Shown here: positions 1 to 8,561 of the stretch, piece after piece
Numbering within the stretch: position 1 is the stretch's first letter
How the letters are laid out: each line of letters opens with the position of its first letter
Origin: Synechococcus sp.
GTDB lineage: Bacteria; Cyanobacteriota; Cyanobacteriia; PCC-6307; Cyanobiaceae
Assembly (NCBI GenBank): GCA_047284725.1
Contig: JBJBEO010000001.1
Location: 824,203-888,202 of the forward strand
DNA: 64,000 bases
Direction: 5' to 3'
Notes under the pieces: generated by a model
Databases searched by the model: none
What the model saw: the letters and a program-made list of their open reading frames with translations, nothing else
What the model was told of the DNA's origin: nothing
Program-made: the position numbers and the translations under genes

Positions 1-1490
<1,490 letters not shown>

Positions 1491-1638
1491 GGGGCTGCAT
1501 GGAGGGCCTGATGGTCAACGTAGTCAGACCCAACCGATTGCGCCGTTGTCAGGGGCTGTATTTCAAAGACAGCCTGAATCGGTTCCGATCACTACATTGC
1601 GAGTGGTCAGGTTTGGGATCTTGAGTGCTTCTAAGTCG

Positions 1639-3246
1639 ATGTCGTGGTTGTCAGGCTATGACAATCAAGTGATCAATCCCGATCTCAATCAACGAGATCT
1701 GCGCACTGTTGTCGCTTCCAGCATTGCAATCAATCTGATTGTTCTGGCGATTCCGCTGTATATCAATCGCATTTACACCTCGGTGGTGCCTGAACAGGCC
1801 GGCGACAGCCTCGCCGGCATCACCCTGTTGCTGGCTGCTGTTCTCGTTCTTGATGTTCTGCTCAAAGCACTGCGGGCCTGGGTCCTCACCTGGCATGGTG
1901 CATCCCGTGAGCACCGACTGCGCATGGAGGCGGTGCGCGCACTGCTGGGCAGTTCCGTGTCAGCGGTGAGAGCGCAGCCCCTGAAGCTCCGCCTGTCACA
2001 GTTGCGCAGCCCAACGGTGCTTCGCAACCAGTTGGAGCAGCAATGGTTGGTGCGGCATGTCGACTTGCCGTTTGCCCTTGTCTATCTGTTGGTGCTGGGT
2101 TTGATCGGGGGCTGGTTGATTCTGCCGCCGTTGCTGCTCACTCCCCTGTTCATTGTGTTGGCGCGTCGCGCCGCTCGCGATGCTGTCAACGGCTACCGCT
2201 CGCATCATCACTACGAGGTGCAGCGCAACCAGCTCGTGGTCAATGGTTTGGCTCTGGCCTCCACTGTGAAAACCCTCAATCTGGAGGGCTTCTTGATACG
2301 CCGGCTGGAGCCGCTCCAGGAACGCGTCAGCTCCAGTGGTTTTGAACAGGAGTCGGCAACGGCCAGGTTGCAGAACCTGTCAGCCTTGTTTGCCCAGTTC
2401 AATCAACTCCTGATCGTCAGCGTGGGTGGGTTGCTGGTGATTCAGCAGGATCTGTCCACCGGTGCCCTGGCGGCTTGCACGCTGCTCAGTGGTCAGGTGG
2501 CGTCGCCCCTGGGCAAGTTGTTTGCCGCCGATGGGCAACGCGCCAGCCTTGAGCAGGCCTCCTCTGATCATCACGCCTTGCTGGCCTTGCCAGCCGAACC
2601 CAACCTGCTCACGGGTGTCGCACAACGACCCTCCCATCCCTCACTCGCGCTTCCAGGCGTTGTGCTCCAGCCGGGCGAGACGCTTGTGTGTGCTGGCGGA
2701 GAGCCTGGCCAATCGTCGCGCTTGATGTCGGCCCTTCATGCCTTGGAGGAACCGTTGGCATCGCGCTGCAGGTTTGGTGATCAACCCTTGTCGCAGTTCC
2801 GCAAGACCTGGCTCCGGCGCCAGATTGCCCTGCTGAAAACGGAGCCACAGCCGTTCCGCGCCACCTTGCTGGAATCGATGACCGGCTTTGAGGTGAATCG
2901 ACGGGCGGAAGCGGCCATCAGCCTGTGCCAGCGCCATGGTGTTGCCCCCCTGATTCAGGCCTTGCCGATGGGGTATGAAACCGTCGTCGGCGAGCAGCAG
3001 CAGTACCCGCTCGCCGCGGGGTTGCGGTTCCGAATTGGTGTGATTCAGGCCTTGCTTGATGACCCTTCCGTGCTGCTTCTGGATGGCACCTTCCCGTCGA
3101 TCAGTGCCGATGCGCTGCAGTGGTTCCTGGGCCTGGATGTGAACTGCGCCCGCTTGATCACGCTCAACAGCTTCCCCGCCGGCCTTCCTCCTGCGGTGCG
3201 CCAACTCAGTTGGCATGGCGACCAGATGGTGGAGGTGGCGTCATGA
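1639..3246 (+). CDS. Type I secretion ABC transporter subunit (TMD plus degenerate NBD)
   Basis: HlyB-like TMD (SSIAINLIVLAIPLYINRIY..., LSTGALAACTLL) and LPMGYETVVGE; Walker A/B and signature motifs are degenerate. Confidence 0.85.
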   Translation: MSWLSGYDNQVINPDLNQRDLRTVVASSIAINLIVLAIPLYINRIYTSVVPEQAGDSLAGITLLLAAVLVLDVLLKALRAWVLTWHGASREHRLRMEAVRALLGSSVSAVRAQPLKLRLSQLRSPTVLRNQLEQQWLVRHVDLPFALVYLLVLGLIGGWLILPPLLLTPLFIVLARRAARDAVNGYRSHHHYEVQRNQLVVNGLALASTVKTLNLEGFLIRRLEPLQERVSSSGFEQESATARLQNLSALFAQFNQLLIVSVGGLLVIQQDLSTGALAACTLLSGQVASPLGKLFAADGQRASLEQASSDHHALLALPAEPNLLTGVAQRPSHPSLALPGVVLQPGETLVCAGGEPGQSSRLMSALHALEEPLASRCRFGDQPLSQFRKTWLRRQIALLKTEPQPFRATLLESMTGFEVNRRAEAAISLCQRHGVAPLIQALPMGYETVVGEQQQYPLAAGLRFRIGVIQALLDDPSVLLLDGTFPSISADALQWFLGLDVNCARLITLNSFPAGLPPAVRQLSWHGDQMVEVAS

Positions 3247-5372
3247 TCACGCGCGATGAACTGTTTGCACGACTGACGGCCAGTCCGTCGGCCACCGCCA
3301 GGATGCTGCCTGCCTTGCTTGAGGGGCTGGGCTGGCTGGGTGAGCCTGTGCAGTTGCGCAACGCTCTGTGCGGCAGCCCGCAACAGATGGATGATGTGGA
3401 TCTGTTGAACACCTTGGCCAATCTTGGCTTCCGTTGGGATGTGCGCCGTCTGCGCGGAGTGCTCACGCCAGACACACTTCCACCGCTCGATTTCCCGGTC
3501 TTGATTCGATCTCAGCAGAGCCATGCGCTGACGCTGATTGAGGATCTTCAGTCGTTGAAAGAGGTTCTCCCCAGATTTCGACGTCTGTTCATTTACAGCT
3601 TTCGCTTTGAGCCCCATCGCGTCGCCGAACAGCGGCAGTGGTTTCAGGCGCTGGTGCTGCGTTTCCGCGGCAGCATTGCTGAGTTGTATGTGATGAGCTT
3701 TCTCATCAGCCTGCTCACCCTGGTGCTGCCCTTTTACATCCGGGCTGTGTACAACCTCGAAATTCCGGGGGGGCAGGTTGGCGACCTGTTTGGACTGTTG
3801 CCGTTTGCCCTGTTGGGGGTGGTGCTCCAGATCTGGTTGACGCAACGGCGGCAGGCCCGGCTGGCTGACCTGGGTGCCGAGCTGGATCTCACCATCAGCA
3901 TTCGGGTCATGGAAAAACTCATGCTGTTGCGCCTTCCTCAGCTGGAGCGCTACACGCCGCTCTCGCTGGCCAGCCGCCTGCGCAGCTTTCAGGGTTTGCG
4001 CTCGTATGTGACAGGCCCTTTGGCGCTCGCTGCACTGGATCTCCCCTTCATCGGGGTGTATCTGGTGGCCATCGCCGTGATGAGTGTGCCGCTGATGCTG
4101 CTCACCCTGGTGATGGTGCTGGTTTGTTTTGGTGGCGTCTATGTGGTGGGTCAGTTGGCGCGTTCGCTGCAGGAGCCATTACGCAGAAATCCAGCCAATC
4201 TTGAGCCGTTGCTGTTGGATCTTCTCGATCACTTCGAACGGGTGAAGCGCACGGGCGCGGAACGCCTGTGGAATGCCCGCATTGAGCAGGCGTCGAGTGA
4301 AGCGGCCATGCAGGGATTGGCGCCCCTGCGCCTGCAGCAGCTGCTCAATATCCTCACGGGTGAATTTGCTCAGCTCACGGGTGCCCTGGTGCTGGCCACA
4401 GGGGCTGGTCTGGCGATTGCGGGGGGCAGCGGCATCGAGCTGGGCACCATGATCGCGGCGATGTTTTTCGTGTGGCGTGTGTTCAGGCCCATCCAGATGG
4501 GCTATCAGGCCTTGAGCCGTTGGTCACAGATCAAGCCCAGCCTTGATCAGCTCAACCGCTTCATGGGGTCGGCTGATGTGGAACCCAGCACCTCCTTGAG
4601 TGATCCATGGGTGTTGCCCATGCCGCAGGGCAACGTTGAACTGAGCAATGTCACCCTGCGTTTGAACGCTCTGCAGGAACCCACCCTGTCTCAGGTGTCG
4701 ATCAAGATCCCTGCCGGCCAGTTGGTGGTGATCAGTGGTCCTGAGGGTTCAGGTCGTTCTGCACTGCTGCGGTTGATTGACGGTCAGATTCAGCCTGGCA
4801 GTGGTGTGCTTCGTTTCGATGGCACCGACTCCCGTCAGTTCCCTCTCTCGCAGCGGCGTCAGAGTGTGGACTTCCTGCCGGAGCAGCCCGGGTTGTTCAG
4901 CGCATCGCTGCGAGAAAACATGATGATCGTCGATCCCTTCACCGACGATCAGGCCATCACCCGCAGCCTGCGCGCCCTGGCGCTGGATGAACTGCTCGAA
5001 GGCCCAGGCTTGGATCGTCCGTTGAGCATGAAGGGTGAGCATTCCCTGCCTCCTTATCTCAGCCAGGGGATTGCGATTGCGCGCTTGCTGCTGGGACAGG
5101 CACCGATCCTGCTGTTGGATCAACCCTTCCGCCTTCTGGATCCACGGCGCCTTGAGGCGCTGCTCACCGTGCTGCAGCAACGCAAAGGACACGGCACCAC
5201 CCTTGTGGTCAGTGATGAGCCCCGTCTGTTGGAACTCGCCGATCAGATCATCGTGATGCGTTCCGGAACGGTGAGTTTCAGCGGCACGCCGCAGGAGCTG
5301 CTGGCAGCACAACAGAAAGCGGCGATGCAGCAGGCCGCGATGGGTGCCATGGCAGGTGCCGCCCAACCTTGA
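3243..5372 (+). CDS. Type I secretion ABC transporter subunit (N-terminal domain, TMD, degenerate NBD)
   Basis: ATGA overlap with the upstream gene; TMD with LDLPF motif; GPEGSGRS and ILLLDQP. Confidence 0.85.
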   Translation: MITRDELFARLTASPSATARMLPALLEGLGWLGEPVQLRNALCGSPQQMDDVDLLNTLANLGFRWDVRRLRGVLTPDTLPPLDFPVLIRSQQSHALTLIEDLQSLKEVLPRFRRLFIYSFRFEPHRVAEQRQWFQALVLRFRGSIAELYVMSFLISLLTLVLPFYIRAVYNLEIPGGQVGDLFGLLPFALLGVVLQIWLTQRRQARLADLGAELDLTISIRVMEKLMLLRLPQLERYTPLSLASRLRSFQGLRSYVTGPLALAALDLPFIGVYLVAIAVMSVPLMLLTLVMVLVCFGGVYVVGQLARSLQEPLRRNPANLEPLLLDLLDHFERVKRTGAERLWNARIEQASSEAAMQGLAPLRLQQLLNILTGEFAQLTGALVLATGAGLAIAGGSGIELGTMIAAMFFVWRVFRPIQMGYQALSRWSQIKPSLDQLNRFMGSADVEPSTSLSDPWVLPMPQGNVELSNVTLRLNALQEPTLSQVSIKIPAGQLVVISGPEGSGRSALLRLIDGQIQPGSGVLRFDGTDSRQFPLSQRRQSVDFLPEQPGLFSASLRENMMIVDPFTDDQAITRSLRALALDELLEGPGLDRPLSMKGEHSLPPYLSQGIAIARLLLGQAPILLLDQPFRLLDPRRLEALLTVLQQRKGHGTTLVVSDEPRLLELADQIIVMRSGTVSFSGTPQELLAAQQKAAMQQAAMGAMAGAAQP

Positions 5373-5408
5373 GTCGGTTTTGTCTTCCAGTCCCTTGTCT
5401 TTTGTCTG

Positions 5409-6809
5409 ATGTCACCATCCACCACCACCCCAGCCTCCAGCACCACCCCAGCCTCCTCCAGCCAGCCCGGGTCTCCGGAGCCATCGTCGCAGCAATCGCT
5501 CTGGCAACTGCCCGTTGAAGCAACCAAGGCTGTCTTTGGCCATGGTCGGCGGGCGGAAGCCCTGTCCCTGGAGGCCGGTCAGGTTCCTCCCAATCTGTCC
5601 CGTTGGCTGCTTGGATCCACGGCCGTGTTGGCCGGATCGATTCTCGTGTCGGCGTTGGTGCCGATTCAGGATTATGTGGTCGCCTCCGGTGAGATTGAAC
5701 CCGCCGGTGATATTCAGAAGGTGCAGCATCTCGAAGGCGGCATCATTCGTGAGCAGTTGGTGGAGGAAGGTGAACGGGTGCGGAAAGGGGAGGTGTTGCT
5801 GCAATTGAATGAGGGGCAGATCGGCTCACAGCAGCAGCAGACCGCCACGCGGATCACCAATCTCACCCTGGAGCAGAGGGAATTGCGCCGGGCCTTGGGA
5901 GAGGAGGCCATGAATGCCCAGGCCCGCACACCGGCTACCCCATCTCCGGAGGTGGCCAAAGCCTATGCCGATCTGGTGCAGCACAAGGGTCTTGATATTC
6001 AGCGTCAGATCAAGGTGGCTGATCAGCGCTTGGCCACCTTGAAGGCCAAGCGCAGGGAGTATCTCGATGAAGTGTCCCTGTTGAAACAACAGACCAAGGC
6101 CTACGAAACACTCGATCAGGCTGGAGCGATTGCTCACAATGATGTGCTGGAAGCGGAGCGCAGGATCGCTTCCACTGAGACACTCCTGGCTGAGTTGGAT
6201 GGCACGATCAAGGAAACGGAGACGCAACGGTTTGAACTGCGCTCCAAGTTGAGAACCGACATCCTTGAACAGCTGGCCAGAGTCACCAGCGAGAAAGCTG
6301 AGCTGCAAAGTGTGCTTGGTGAGCAACTCGATGAGGTGGAGCGATTGCAGGTGCGCTCCCCTGTTGATGGCATTGTCAAGAGTTACACGGTGAAGACCAT
6401 TGGTGGCGTGATTGCCCCCGGCAGTGTGGTTGCCGAGGTGGTGCCCACGGGCGATCAGTTGGAAGGGTTTCTCAGGGTCAAACCTGCTGATATCGGCAAC
6501 GTCATGAAGGGGCAGAAAGTGCAACTCAAGGTTCAGGCCTACGACTACAGTCGCTACGGCACGATTCCTGGTGTTGTCAAATCGATTTCGGCCGGCACCT
6601 TTCAGGATGAAAAAACTGGAGAGCCTTACTACAAGGTTCGTGCTGCCTTGGATCGGGAATTTGCCGGCAAAACCAAAGGCCGCAATCTGTTGGTGCCTGG
6701 CATGACATTAACGGCTGACATTCTCACCGATCGCACCAATCTGTTGATGTATCTGCTGGGTCCGATCGGCCGAGGCTTTGGTGATGCTTTCCACGAACAA
6801 AGTTTGTGA
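5409..6809 (+). CDS. HlyD-family type I secretion periplasmic adaptor
   Basis: VQHLEGGII, coiled coil, VRSPVDGIV, YDYSRYGTIPG, PGMTLTADI. Confidence 0.92.
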   Translation: MSPSTTTPASSTTPASSSQPGSPEPSSQQSLWQLPVEATKAVFGHGRRAEALSLEAGQVPPNLSRWLLGSTAVLAGSILVSALVPIQDYVVASGEIEPAGDIQKVQHLEGGIIREQLVEEGERVRKGEVLLQLNEGQIGSQQQQTATRITNLTLEQRELRRALGEEAMNAQARTPATPSPEVAKAYADLVQHKGLDIQRQIKVADQRLATLKAKRREYLDEVSLLKQQTKAYETLDQAGAIAHNDVLEAERRIASTETLLAELDGTIKETETQRFELRSKLRTDILEQLARVTSEKAELQSVLGEQLDEVERLQVRSPVDGIVKSYTVKTIGGVIAPGSVVAEVVPTGDQLEGFLRVKPADIGNVMKGQKVQLKVQAYDYSRYGTIPGVVKSISAGTFQDEKTGEPYYKVRAALDREFAGKTKGRNLLVPGMTLTADILTDRTNLLMYLLGPIGRGFGDAFHEQSL

Positions 6810-6897
6810 GTGTCGCGTCAACGCCTCCGGTCAGGCTGCATGCTTGATGGCCCCCTGGATCGATCACCGTGACATCAAACCGAGCTGCCGAACCACG

Positions 6898-7740
6898 ATG
6901 ACCTTCGCGATTGCCAAAGCTGCCACCAGCCTCGCTGCCGCGATTCTCCTGGGCGCTTGCAGTGACGCCACCGACAAGGCTGATGCACCCGCCCCACGGT
7001 CCACGGCATCGGCCACCAGGATCTCGAAACCGCAGGGATGGACCAACGACAACGTCTTCCTCGGTCGATGGCAAGGGAACAGCACCGCCGGGCGAGCGGT
7101 GTTGGATGTGCTCACGCTGGAACCGAATCGGGTGCGCTGGGGGAACGCCGCGAATGGCTCCTGCGACAGCGACTACAGCGTTGAACAGATGCCCTGGGGG
7201 CGTCACGGGCGCTTCCCTGATCAGCTGGTTCCGCCCACGCAACCCACCGATCTGGTGTATGGCGTCGTCAGGCTCACCCTCCTACCACAACCGTGCAACA
7301 CCGGCGTTGCCGTGATCCAGTTGGCCAAGCCGATGGATGGATCAGGGGCCCTGCAGGTGGTGACCTACGACGCCGAGGGAGCGATCCGAGGCAACTACCC
7401 CGACCTTTCGGAGCTGCGTGCAGACCAGGCCCCGAAGCAGCCCCATGATGTTGGCGGCAGTCCCCCGATTGTCGACACGGCCAGGTTTCCGCTGACTTGC
7501 ACGCTCAATGCGATCGCCTCCACCTGCCGAACCGAGCCTGCAGCCAACGATGGGTTCACGGTCATCTTCAGCCACGCCGAAGGCCCGACCTTCACGTTCA
7601 CGCCGGTCGGTGCACCGACCACGGATCGACGTGAAATGGTCGATGGCACGGGCCAGCGGTGGGCGATGACTGGGCATCACACCTTTGAGCTGGAGGAGAT
7701 CGGTGGTTACGGCAACAGGATCACGGTCAGCAAACCCTGA
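6898..7740 (+). CDS. Hypothetical lipoprotein, apparently two domains
   Basis: Signal peptide with lipobox LLGA-C followed by an Ala/Pro linker. Confidence 0.65.
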   Translation: MTFAIAKAATSLAAAILLGACSDATDKADAPAPRSTASATRISKPQGWTNDNVFLGRWQGNSTAGRAVLDVLTLEPNRVRWGNAANGSCDSDYSVEQMPWGRHGRFPDQLVPPTQPTDLVYGVVRLTLLPQPCNTGVAVIQLAKPMDGSGALQVVTYDAEGAIRGNYPDLSELRADQAPKQPHDVGGSPPIVDTARFPLTCTLNAIASTCRTEPAANDGFTVIFSHAEGPTFTFTPVGAPTTDRREMVDGTGQRWAMTGHHTFELEEIGGYGNRITVSKP

Positions 7741-7836: not shown

Positions 7837-8561
7837 TTATTTGAACAGGGTTTGCAGTAGAACATTCACGGCAGCTCCCGTCACATCACCTGCCGTGGGC
7901 TGCCGGCTGCCGTTGTTCTGTGTGGCCACCAGTTTGTAATTCGCGAAGCGGAACACCCCGGTGTTGCCGTGATCCACGAAGGTCACAGGCCAGGTGCCCC
8001 CGAAGGAATCGGTGATGGTGTAGCTGTGCCCTCCTTGGCTGGTGAACAGATAGGTGTTGCCGTTGCCGAGATGGATGCGATACCGGCTGCTGTTGCCCTT
8101 CACCACTTGCTTGAGGTCACAGGGCCCATCGAACATCGGTCGGCCGCCCTCGCTGAGGCTGCACAATCCCGTTTGTTGAGCCACCTGCTTCTGAGGTTTT
8201 GGGGCGGGTTGCACGGAGGATGCGCCAAACAGCTGTTTGGTGAGCCGTTTGGCTTTGTTCCTGGCGTTCCAGCCATCATTCCAGCAGGTGCGCTGCTCAA
8301 CGCTGCAGGCCTGACCGGAGCTGAGTCTGAAATCGCGGCTTCTGGAAGCCCTGAGGTTCTGTGTCAGCCGATCCGCAGCTATTGCCCGAAATAGATCTTG
8401 GTGATTCCGATCGAGGGGCCAGCACTGTCGTAACAAACCTGACCAACCTGATCACACACTTCTCCCTTGCGGGGATAGCTGATTCCATCGCGCTGGGCCT
8501 GGGCTGCCAACGGGCTGATCACCAGTGTGGCAGCGCTGGCACAAGCAAAGAACACGCGCAT
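7837..8561 (-). pseudogene. Frameshifted YcgJ (Fels-1 prophage-like) family secreted protein
   Basis: Signal peptide plus GEVCDQVGQVCYD...ITKIYFGQ* in one frame continues as IAADRL...DFRLSSGQAC...RTCW in another; one missing A near 8381 would join them. Confidence 0.65.

Follow-up and report, generated by a model that had tools for sequence, protein, structure and literature searches.

To our knowledge, no type I secretion system (T1SS) studied so far works without ATP hydrolysis by its ABC protein. In heterodimeric exporters, one active site is normally retained and the degenerate site is structural, as set out in PMC7756269, and a sequence-only reading of the DNA analyzed here had made the same point in stating that such exporters normally keep one consensus site. 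For TmrAB, PMC7205462 describes translocation driven by ATP binding alone. MARTX T1SS combine two ABC proteins with one adaptor, both ABCs being required for a very large substrate (PMC3034196), and DDxP/T1SS-143 proteins are giant and modular with DDxP-ended repeats, their genes lying mostly beside T1SS genes (PMC7730722). In our literature search, we found no account of an ABC pair with both members degenerate, whether in T1SS or in picocyanobacteria. For Synechococcus itself, ABC-type transport genes are reportedly needed for export of SwmA and SwmB.

Here, we analyzed a locus in the window, i.e., a 64,000-nt stretch of a Synechococcus sp. genome, in which two degenerate ABC genes and an adaptor gene lie next to the gene of a giant repeat protein (Table 1). 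We best explain this locus, with a probability of roughly 0.55, as a heterodimeric translocon or anchor that derives from a T1SS, carries pseudo-ATPase domains and serves a giant DDxP/DUF5801 protein.

Table 1 Features of the locus, in positions of the window.
Feature	Position	Strand	Details
Giant cargo gene, 5' part	3..1490	-	First 496 codons; transcribed divergently from ABC1
Cargo N-terminal box	1341..1490	-	Form ..RRLxxLSNLHxGDRE..S.PEGA; alignment of three genera
Divergent cargo/ABC1 intergenic region	1491..1638	.	148 bp; presumed promoters
ABC1	1639..3246	+	ATG at 1639, stop 3244-3246, 535 aa
ABC1 Walker A remnant GGEPGQSS	2695-2718	+	Pairs with GGSGSGKS of plant ABCB19, Lys to Ser
ABC1 Q-loop LLKTEP	2830-2847	+	LKTEP pairs with VNQEP of ABCB19
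ABC1 signature LAAGL	3010-3024	+	Pairs with LSGGQ of ABCB19
ABC1 Walker B LLLDG	3073-3087	+	Pairs with LLLDE of ABCB19
ABC1 "switch" ITLNS	3157-3171	+	Motif placement uncertain
ABC2	3243..5372	+	ATG at 3243, stop 5370-5372, 709 aa
ABC2 Walker A GPEGSGRS	4737-4760	+	Arg codon CGT at 4755; pairs with GSSGSGKS of ABCB1
ABC2 Q-loop FLPEQP	4872-4889	+	Glu at Gln position, Gln one residue later
ABC2 signature LPPYL	5046-5060	+	Pairs with LSGGQ of plant ABCB1
ABC2 Walker B LLLDQ	5109-5123	+	Gln codon CAA at 5121; ILLLDQ pairs with ILLLDE of ABCB1
ABC2 switch VVSDE	5205-5219	+	Asp codon at 5214; pairs with IIAHR of plant ABCB1
HlyD-family periplasmic adaptor (membrane-fusion protein)	5409..6809	+	466 aa; TIGR01843, HlyD_3

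The three export genes contain no internal stops, and the ABC1/ABC2 junction reads GGAGGTGGCGTCATGA, which confirms the ATGA overlap; a GGAGG precedes it by 7 nt. The sequence-only reading was thus right that both ABC genes are full length and translationally coupled, and that a normal HlyD gene follows: the adaptor scored 277.6 bits against the NCBIfam profile TIGR01843 (curated cut-off 208.65) and 70.1 bits against Pfam HlyD_3. Across 22 loci, an ABC1 homologue was directly 5' of ABC2 in all, and an HlyD homologue directly 3' in 21. The genome encodes one TolC-like protein (PF02321, G000:C1:266248-267552; two OEP repeats, 98 and 95 bits), which would be the candidate outer-membrane factor for this system.

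ABC1 is a half-transporter lacking an N-terminal domain, with a membrane domain (TMD, residues ~1-320) and a shortened degenerate ATPase domain (NBD, 321-535), while ABC2 is HlyB-like, with a putative C39-like domain (CLD, ~1-135, nt 3243-3647) ahead of its TMD (136-460) and its NBD (461-709), which is degenerate. Pfam ABC_membrane was present in both (55.8 bits in ABC1), and the ABC1 ATPase domain reached 24.6 bits with ABC_tran, just under the cut-off of 25. Neither protein attained the cut-off of a curated T1SS ABC family among TIGR03375 (693.1 bits), TIGR01842 (510.15) and TIGR01846 (725.55), the respective scores being 307.1, 190.6 and 160.3 bits for ABC2 and 190.4, 144.6 and 107.2 bits for ABC1. 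Pfam did not find a C39 domain in ABC2, and no conserved Cys occurred in the C39-like domain among aligned orthologues; by Foldseek, 701-725 columns were aligned between the whole ABC2 model, residues 1-135 included, and HlyB and PCAT1 at full length. AF2 models had a mean pLDDT of 81.8 for ABC2 and 88.6 for ABC1 (87-97 across its NBD blocks) and matched HlyB, PCAT1 and PrtD with TM scores of 0.63-0.83, the best fold match of ABC1 being HlyB (8dck_A, TM 0.82). Both NBD folds are predicted with confidence by these models, and in our best explanation the two domains are kept as folded structural modules, i.e., pseudo-ATPases.

Several observations bear on whether the two proteins work together. 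Co-folding of the two TMDs, in line with the heterodimer modeling that the sequence-only reading had proposed, scored 0.72 (best of three controls 0.00), a mark that 116 of 157 solved complexes attained, as did 2 of 215 mismatched pairs, although this pass may reflect likeness since like complexes have already been solved. Contacts agreed by at least 95% between runs, with partner pLDDT of 75-76. Some of the more distant relatives were ABC1-ABC2 fusions: of the 24 representatives of ~1250-1440 aa, 23 had an ABC1-like/CLD/ABC2-like arrangement, ABC1 matching best to the N half and ABC2 to the C half. Because such fused homologues exist, ABC1 and ABC2 are best read as one heterodimeric exporter-fold unit.

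We assigned the ATPase motifs of this unit from alignments to the best matches, i.e., plant ABCB1 for ABC2 and plant ABCB19 for ABC1; HlyB and PrtD were listed matches only, and the motif pairing rests on the ABCB1 and ABCB19 alignments. The Walker A Lys, catalytic Glu, switch His and LSGGQ were all absent from both ABC1 and ABC2, and all motif coordinates given for the two proteins in the sequence-only reading matched when the letters were read again. Two of its motif assignments held in part: FLPEQP lies where it was placed in ABC2, but without Gln at the consensus position of a Q-loop, and ITLNS likewise sits at its given position in ABC1, but its identity as the switch is uncertain because the part of the domain beyond Walker B is shortened (46 residues, versus 70 in the canonical HlyB-type protein of the same genome). 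As judged from these residues, a consensus ATP-hydrolysis site cannot be assembled from ABC1 and ABC2.

This degeneracy extends well beyond one strain. For ABC2, 66 orthologue clusters (38-100% identity) retained the Lys in one case, the Glu in one and the His in none, while the glycine frame G-x-[ED]-G-x-G-x-[ST] and the Walker B Asp were mostly kept. For ABC1, Lys, Glu and His were each retained in 0 of 62 clusters, with none of the 62 rows showing a His where the switch was placed, and all clusters of both proteins were full length. Conservation of the substitutions among orthologues, which the sequence-only reading had left to be checked, is therefore found, and strain-specific decay can be ruled out since the orthologues likewise lack GKS/DE/H; from these alignments, the motif degeneracy is ancient and clade-wide. 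The window's clade A and clade B form a sister pair (SH-aLRT 100) that branches within a set of relatives retaining the residues. In the ABC2-like half of these distant relatives, 138 of 145 representatives had the Lys, 123 the Glu, 100 the His and 92 all three, and among 23 ABC1-like N halves of fused proteins the Lys occurred 13 times, the Glu 16 times and the His 8 times. Clade B ABC2, by comparison, showed Lys and a Walker B Asp-Asp in 18 of 18 sequences and no His, so that this sister clade, of which the window's genome holds a second copy, retains the ABC2 Lys alone. From this distribution, loss of the catalytic Glu and His probably predates the separation of the two picocyanobacterial clades, and loss of the Walker A Lys probably followed it in the clade of the window.

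Next, we evaluated selection through dN/dS (NG86) on two orthologue pairs with unsaturated dS, i.e., G236/G326 and G109/G310. The respective values were 0.077 and 0.081 for the ABC1 TMD, 0.225 and 0.183 for the ABC1 NBD, 0.079 and 0.079 for the ABC2 CLD, 0.044 and 0.036 for the ABC2 TMD, 0.100 and 0.110 for the ABC2 NBD, and 0.060 and 0.057 for HlyD, so that all domains of the three proteins are clearly under purifying selection; dN/dS is below 1 throughout (0.04-0.23), as the sequence-only reading had thought worth verifying. Since synonymous sites between the window and its nearest genome, G109, were saturated and dN/dS unusable, that comparison was replaced by the two within-genus pairs, and the ratios describe orthologues rather than the window strain. 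For a canonical HlyB-type ABC used as control, amino acid identity was 0.88 in the TMD and 0.81 in the NBD; an ML dS of 0.243 for the control NBD looks unreliable and was set aside.

A decaying, functionless locus could account for NBDs that evolve 2-3 times faster than the TMDs, for the in-frame stop in one of 15 window-type ABC2 copies (G255) and for stops in five sister-clade matches (G132, G087, G357, G309 and G268). This reading is already contradicted by the selection, intactness, fold and synteny results, i.e., low dN/dS, three intact genes in the window, full-length orthologue clusters, co-variation that yields confident fold predictions and cargo-transporter synteny conserved in at least four genera, and we regard it as very improbable; the earlier impression that the locus shows no sign of decay is borne out.

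Conserved remnants of the ATP site could instead indicate a nucleotide-dependent machine in which the ABC2 P-loop frame faces the FPLxxGLxFR region of ABC1, binding ATP or a different phosphate ligand and supporting very slow hydrolysis or a binding-only power stroke, which would suffice for a seldom-used exporter of a single giant protein. Given conservation of the glycine frame, the Walker B Asp and the Ser/Thr that follows the lost Lys, and Arg in place of that Lys in the window, ABC2 may still bind a nucleotide or phosphate to some extent or hydrolyze slowly in a non-canonical way: the frame, the Asp and the ABC1 signature region FPLxxGLxFR are maintained clade-wide, Arg occurs naturally at the Lys position in 9 of 23 fused N halves, clade B with its intact Walker A and Asp-Asp Walker B resembles a degenerate site, and TmrAB offers a precedent for translocation by binding alone (PMC7205462). 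However, the Lys position appears unconstrained (R, T, S, C or I, with K once in 66), most ABC2 orthologues carry an acidic residue inside the P-loop, the aromatic A-loop position is Leu in the window (VTLRL), and the P-loop is wholly missing from distant ABC1 orthologues. Overall, we consider such a non-canonical site unlikely.

Energy could also be supplied in trans, i.e., by a competent HlyB-type ABC encoded elsewhere that joins the degenerate heterodimer in an HlyD-scaffolded assembly. A third, consensus HlyB, for which the sequence-only reading had suggested a search, does exist in the genome at G000:C1:2418663-2421969 (~990-aa protein at G000:C1:2418663-2420717; GQSGSGKS, LSGGQ, MDE and H), ~1000-aa HlyB-type frames (motifs unread) occurred in five of five genomes checked, and the solved HlyB/D complexes 7sgr and 8dck reportedly hold several ABC dimers each. 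This gene has an adjacent membrane-fusion gene of its own, however, and its co-occurrence is uninformative since it is near-universal in the family, with or without a degenerate system; moreover, the folded NBDs of ABC1 and ABC2 occupy the docking place of any foreign NBD. Dependence on the sister-clade system was rejected: among genomes with the window-type system, clade B was also present in four of four in a first sample but in six of 15 in a wider one. With a clade B ABC2 as query, G236, G310, G326, G302 and G209 gave no clade B copy; all five have the window-type system and four are complete single contigs, so that borrowing from clade B ABC2 is not general and that system is not required. 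Taken together, supply in trans seems improbable to us.

The whole gene of the adjacent putative cargo (G000:C1:816144-825692) encodes 3160 aa without Cys, with ~15 identical repeats of ~164 aa that each have a DDGP end (15 DD.P matches), and reached 231 bits with PF19116 DUF5801 (cut-off 27). No RTX GGxGxD nonapeptide was found in it, and TIGR03660 (T1SS-143) scored 56.3 bits, below its cut-off of 66.05. Since its last 700 residues gave only DUF5801 in Pfam and nothing in NCBIfam, the C-terminal end is without a known signal domain; it is conserved within the genus only. At the opposite end, a 50-aa query with the N-terminal box matched 12 of 401 related genomes, all within the 15 that have a window-type ABC2 and each 1.8-4.2 kb from that gene, and found no match among database proteins of 869-2480 aa, a range that excludes giants. 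Judging from these matches, the box is specific to the window-type transporter, and as part of our best explanation the ABC1-ABC2-HlyD apparatus would be dedicated to the adjacent DDxP/DUF5801 giant as its putative cargo.

The conserved box and the Cys-less C39-like domain could also make a stable tether, and ABC proteins that do not transport are known (SUR and CFTR); the locus might accordingly have lost its secretion role and encode a trans-envelope anchor, sensor or regulator, to which the giant protein or its box attaches without being translocated. We give this little probability: no Sec-type signal was seen by eye at the cargo N terminus and the only export genes found beside it are ABC1, ABC2 and HlyD, and conservation is strongest in the membrane domains (dN/dS 0.04-0.08), as would be expected for a translocation path. 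Anchoring after secretion, moreover, is already part of our preferred explanation rather than opposed to it.

Regarding expression, six metatranscriptome runs contained 5-17% of sampled words, and four runs from one study yielded contigs of 151-398 nt at depths of 2-4.5 scattered over ABC1, ABC2 and HlyD (psbC depth 3900-12000 in the same runs). We did not accept these as transcription of the three genes since the libraries may contain DNA.

Under the pseudo-ATPase translocon that we favor, the ABC1/ABC2 heterodimer and the HlyD adaptor would form an inner-membrane and periplasmic apparatus, with the TolC-like protein completing the conduit. This apparatus would still handle the giant protein, because the C39-like and membrane domains are its most conserved parts, and would serve as a gated conduit and anchor that cycles rarely or is used once. 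Because neither ABC subunit retains the ATP-burning residues, another energy source may power export; vectorial movement could come from outside the ABC proteins, through extracellular folding of the acidic repeats (assumed to be Ca-dependent) and/or membrane potential. ATP hydrolysis would serve mainly to reset a cycling exporter and be dispensable in a rarely cycling or single-use conduit. More tentatively, and as a possibility in which we have limited confidence, this could be a T1SS working without any ATP hydrolysis, a single-use folding- and/or potential-driven translocon turned permanent anchor. The C39-like domain would grip the leader-like N-terminal box, the giant would thread out via ABC1/ABC2-HlyD-TolC, and the spent translocon would become a lasting surface-protein anchor; hydrolysis would be dispensable because the machine never resets, and would have been lost stepwise, Glu and His in the ancestor of both picocyanobacterial clades and Lys thereafter in the window's clade.

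A whole clade lacking both ATP sites, yet under purifying selection and with one identifiable cargo, constitutes a natural experiment on the role of ATP hydrolysis in protein export, i.e., power stroke, reset or gating, and bears on whether extracellular folding or membrane potential can move a megadalton-scale substrate. It also marks out a transporter-cargo pair (C39-like domain and N-terminal box) in picocyanobacteria, a group of worldwide ecological importance whose giant surface proteins have received little study.

Among known systems, the locus resembles the HlyB/HlyD/TolC T1SS (group 2) in the predicted CLD-TMD-NBD layout of ABC2, the exporter fold of ABC1, best matches to HlyB and PCAT1, the adjacent HlyD-family adaptor, a TolC-like gene elsewhere and a giant acidic repeat cargo next door. 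It differs in having two dissimilar ABC subunits rather than a homodimer, in scoring far under the curated T1SS ABC cut-offs without the four consensus ATPase elements, and in a cargo with a conserved N-terminal box instead of RTX nonapeptides. Like TmrAB, TM287/288, TAP and ABCC proteins, it comprises two different half-transporters, and clade B ABC2, with its intact Walker A, Asp-Asp Walker B and missing His, recalls heterodimers with one degenerate site; these keep one powering site, however, whereas the window pair has lost the would-be active site too. MARTX RtxB/RtxD/RtxE are alike by description in having two ABCs and one adaptor in an operon, but RtxB and RtxE are described as ATP-binding (PMC3034196) and the gene order is B-D-E as opposed to ABC1-ABC2-HlyD. 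The DDxP/T1SS-143 class shares DD.P-ended repeats, of which the window cargo has 15, although PMC7730722 contains no occurrence of cyanobacteria, the TIGR03660 match of the window cargo is sub-cut-off, and its N-terminal box is limited to the window-type transporter clade. Full-length homology, ABC1-like and CLD-ABC2-like halves, non-canonical signature motifs and an ABC1-like half prone to degenerate are shared with the wider two-ABC or fused "LPxGFxQR-signature" T1SS family (P0073-P0218), in which the ABC2-like half mostly keeps Lys, Glu and His, while the window's clade has lost them in both subunits.

The sequence-only reading described an intact type I secretion (T1SS)-like operon in which both ABC ATPases look catalytically dead, and all of its motifs and coordinates were reproduced on the sequence. 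In the 2.58-Mb single-contig genome that holds the window (G000), positions 1639-6809 are occupied by three co-directional genes, ABC1, ABC2, and HlyD. The translational coupling of the two ABC genes and the normal HlyD gene downstream were both borne out: the ABC1/ABC2 overlap is ATGA, with GGAGG 7 nt 5' of the ABC2 start, and HlyD passed TIGR01843, a curated model for T1SS adaptors, at 277.6 bits (cut-off 208.65). For both ABC proteins the best models were T1SS ABC models, yet scores fell far under the cut-offs (TIGR03375: 307.1 bits for ABC2 and 190.4 for ABC1 vs. 693.1), and the Pfam score of the ABC1 ATPase domain was just under its own threshold (24.6 vs. 25 bits). The one TolC-like gene of G000 lies outside the operon, and psbC- and psbD-like frames follow a few kb downstream; these frames, together with relatives named "Synechococcus sp." and "Prochlorococcaceae cyanobacterium", assign the genome to the picocyanobacteria. 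The 290-aa frame located there has a lipoprotein-like start (..LLGAC..) and gave no match in Pfam; in the related genome G109, psbC directly follows HlyD without this frame.

Features of the operon, its surroundings, and related loci of G000 (window positions unless a contig is given)
Feature	Position	Strand	Size	Remarks
Cargo gene	start at 1490, on to G000:C1:816144	-	3160 aa	divergent from ABC1
Cargo N-terminal box	1341-1490	-	first ~50 residues	..RRLxxLSNLHxGDRE..S.PEGA, conserved across genera
ABC1	1639-3246	+	535 aa	
ABC2	3243-5372	+	709 aa	
HlyD	5409-6809	+	466 aa	
290-aa frame	6868-7737	+	290 aa	between HlyD and psbC
YcgJ-family frame	7837-8436	-	199 aa	PF05666, 39.4 bits
Clade B locus ABC1-ABC2-HlyD	G000:C1:1079087-1084541			then 4781-codon repeat-protein frame (both within 1079087-1099036)
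Consensus HlyB-type ABC (locus L034)	G000:C1:2418663-2421969		~990 aa	long N-terminal extension; adjoins own 426-codon membrane-fusion gene

Motif equivalence was read from alignments to the best matches, plant ABCB1 and ABCB19, and the motif pairing rests on these alignments; HlyB and PrtD were also among the matches. Read this way, ABC2 carries GPEGSGRS at Walker A (Lys to Arg), LPPYL for the signature LSGGQ, D-Q for the Walker B D-E, Asp for the switch His, and Glu for the Q-loop Gln, and ABC1 carries GGEPGQSS (Lys to Ser), LAAGL, D-G, no switch residue that could be seen, and Thr, respectively. The C-terminal part of ABC1 is short, with 46 residues past Walker B vs. 70 in the canonical HlyB-type protein of G000. 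For clade A, i.e., systems with a window-type ABC2, these motifs predict that no consensus ATP site is possible, however ABC1 and ABC2 pair. Confident AlphaFold models from orthologue alignments reached a mean pLDDT of 81.8 for ABC2 and 88.6 for ABC1, with blocks of the ATPase domain (NBD) at 87-97 in ABC1 and mostly 83-94 in ABC2 (dips at 67-79), and the closest structures to both were HlyB in the HlyB/D complex, PCAT1, and PrtD.

The loss of the catalytic residues proved to be clade-wide. Among 66 ABC2 orthologue clusters from a database search (38-100% identity), a single one retains the Walker A Lys (R, T, S, C, or I in the rest), one has the catalytic Glu (Q, H, S, or D in the rest), and none has the switch His (mostly Asp); in 62 ABC1 sequences, Lys, Glu, and His all stood at 0, and a signature-region motif, FPLxxGLxFR, was conserved. 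In ABC2 orthologues the glycine frame of the P-loop, G-x-[ED]-G-x-G-x-[ST], mostly persists, as does the Asp of Walker B. Conservation of this frame, its Ser/Thr, and the Asp is consistent with a vestigial nucleotide or phosphate site that would still bind, or hydrolyze very slowly, but the Lys position is unconstrained and the P-loop contains an acidic residue, and we regard such a site as unlikely.

For dN/dS, the comparison of the window with its nearest genome, G109 (74% ABC2 identity), was dropped because synonymous sites were saturated, and two closer within-genus pairs were therefore used (G236/G326 and G109/G310), whose values are those of same-genus orthologues, not of the window's own strain. 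All operon regions were below 1 (0.036-0.225): 0.077 and 0.081 for the ABC1 membrane domain (TMD), 0.225 and 0.183 for its NBD, 0.079 in both pairs for the C39-like domain of ABC2, 0.044 and 0.036 for its TMD, 0.100 and 0.110 for its NBD, and 0.060 and 0.057 for HlyD. The NBDs are therefore under constraint, though 2-3 times weaker than that on the TMDs. Between G000 and G109, NBD identity was 0.81 for the canonical HlyB-type ABC, 0.63 for ABC2, and 0.53 for ABC1, with similar TMD identities, so that the canonical protein has by far the best-preserved NBD. The clade-wide pattern and purifying dN/dS upheld the earlier impression of no decay: judged from sequence, the double motif loss is a clade-wide selected state, the locus is very probably functional, and decay, contradicted by the selection data, is very improbable. 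One ABC2 copy of clade A contains an in-frame stop (G255:C3:3069-5165), and five stop-bearing copies are found among matches of the sister type, clade B (G132, G087, G357, G309, and G268); sporadic pseudogenization or errors in sequencing could account for them.

The cargo, a giant DDxP/DUF5801 repeat protein, is acidic (10.9% Asp) and cysteine-free, and contains ~15 DUF5801 modules of ~164 aa (PF19116, 231 bits) with the same amino-acid sequence, each closing with DDGP. Such perfect repeats suggest a recent expansion or ongoing homogenization. An eleven-Asn run lies near residue 145. The RTX nonapeptide, looked for in the cargo, was absent, and the T1SS-143 match was sub-threshold. The cargo matches the description of "DDxP proteins" in PMC7730722, whose genes mostly adjoin T1SS genes; cyanobacteria go unmentioned in that paper. 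The N-terminal box, as a 50-aa query, was found in 12 of 401 genomes, all of them among the 15 clade A genomes and in every case 1.8-4.2 kb from the ABC2 gene, and the same query had no match in the 386 genomes outside clade A. Three clade A genomes gave no box match: in two of them the operon lies at the edge of a contig, and the third is G209. The spacing of hydrophobic residues before "xG" in the box resembles that of double-glycine leaders. The N-terminal domain of ABC2 is well conserved (e.g., QLRNAL, LANLG), yet lacks a conserved Cys. The box might bind this C39-like, Cys-less domain.

Across 401 sampled genomes of the family, with two candidates scored per genome, clade A (at least 40% identity) was detected in 15 and clade B (28-35% identity) in ~40, including the second locus of G000, where ABC2 retains GKSGSGKS and has Walker B Asp-Asp without the switch His, and ABC1 has no P-loop. 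An ABC1 homologue lies upstream of ABC2 in 22 of 22 loci examined and a HlyD homologue downstream in 21, the exception being G058 (cargo-HlyD-ABC1-ABC2). All 18 clade B ABC2 sequences, a count that excludes the broken copy L009, carry Walker A GxxGxGK[ST] and Walker B Asp-Asp, with neither switch His nor signature, and the ABC1 Walker A Lys was present in 0 of 23 sequences from both clades together. In a maximum-likelihood tree, from a quick search on 66 hand-picked rows rooted on a single outgroup (the consensus HlyB-type ABC of G000), A and B were sisters (SH-aLRT of 100 for each clade and the joint stem), nested among residue-keeping relatives. In 145 more distant representatives of 50% clusters, Lys, Glu, and His were retained by 138, 123, and 100 of the ABC2-like NBDs, respectively, and the full set by 92; all three were missing in P0166, P0182, and P0209, a sign that complete loss also arose independently in lineages other than the picocyanobacterial clades. 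By parsimony, the simplest history would be a loss of Glu and His before the A/B split, and later of Lys in A.

ABC1 and ABC2 are best read as one heterodimer. Of 24 distant representatives of ~1250-1440 aa (P0073-P0102, P0133), 23 are fusions that run from an ABC1-like half through a C39-like domain to an ABC2-like half, the N half being best matched by ABC1 and the C half by ABC2. Of these 23 ABC1-like halves, 13 have the Lys and 9 an Arg, 16 have the Glu, and 8 have the His, so that by motif count the ABC1-like half is the degeneration-prone one in the fusions. Compared with this wider two-ABC family, in which one ATPase is degenerate, clade A goes further and has lost the residues of both. 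In four fusions read (P0073-P0076), the C39-like domain has a Cys in some (e.g., ..NCL..), and there it may be an active peptidase. Co-folding of the two TMDs scored 0.72 (best control 0.00), a mark that solved complexes attained in 116 of 157 cases and mismatched pairs in 2 of 215, with at least 95% contact agreement between runs and a partner pLDDT of 75-76, although this pass may reflect mere likeness to solved ABC exporter dimers.

Taken together, ABC1/ABC2/HlyD form a conserved, selected, and cargo-linked set whose NBDs are unable to build a consensus ATP site, and the pair probably performs no meaningful ATP hydrolysis. Our overall reading, held at a probability of roughly 0.55, is that of a cargo-linked export set with pseudo-ATPase NBDs, driven from outside the ABC proteins. 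The set would still handle the giant protein, with the NBDs as structural modules, and the machine would cycle rarely or just once, so that the reset function of hydrolysis would be dispensable. The force for movement would come from outside the ABC pair. Early HlyA export depends on proton-motive force. PMC7730722 restates that in T1SS the folding of RTX repeats, triggered by Ca, serves as a ratchet, and DUF5801 modules might conceivably behave likewise.

The energy could instead be supplied in trans by a consensus HlyB-type ABC. The third, consensus HlyB that was to be searched for is present in G000, and HlyB-type frames, motifs unread, occur in 5 of 5 genomes checked, but the clade B system is not required, and we consider this supply quite improbable. 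Each relative checked carries 1-5 ABC frames of similar length (~980-1100 aa). A non-secretory role of the set, as an anchor or regulator, is given a similarly low probability, and an externally driven export set remains our preferred reading. Among known systems, MARTX systems have two ABC proteins (PMC3034196), and the large T1SS review PMC8277102, in the part available to us, reports degenerate sites only for TmrAB-like exporters; in the literature we searched, itself available in part, no paper evidently described a T1SS-like system in which both sites are degenerate. Heterodimeric exporters, as the sequence-only reading had stated in agreement with the available part of PMC7756269, retain one active site, whereas the clade A pair of the window lacks any consensus site.
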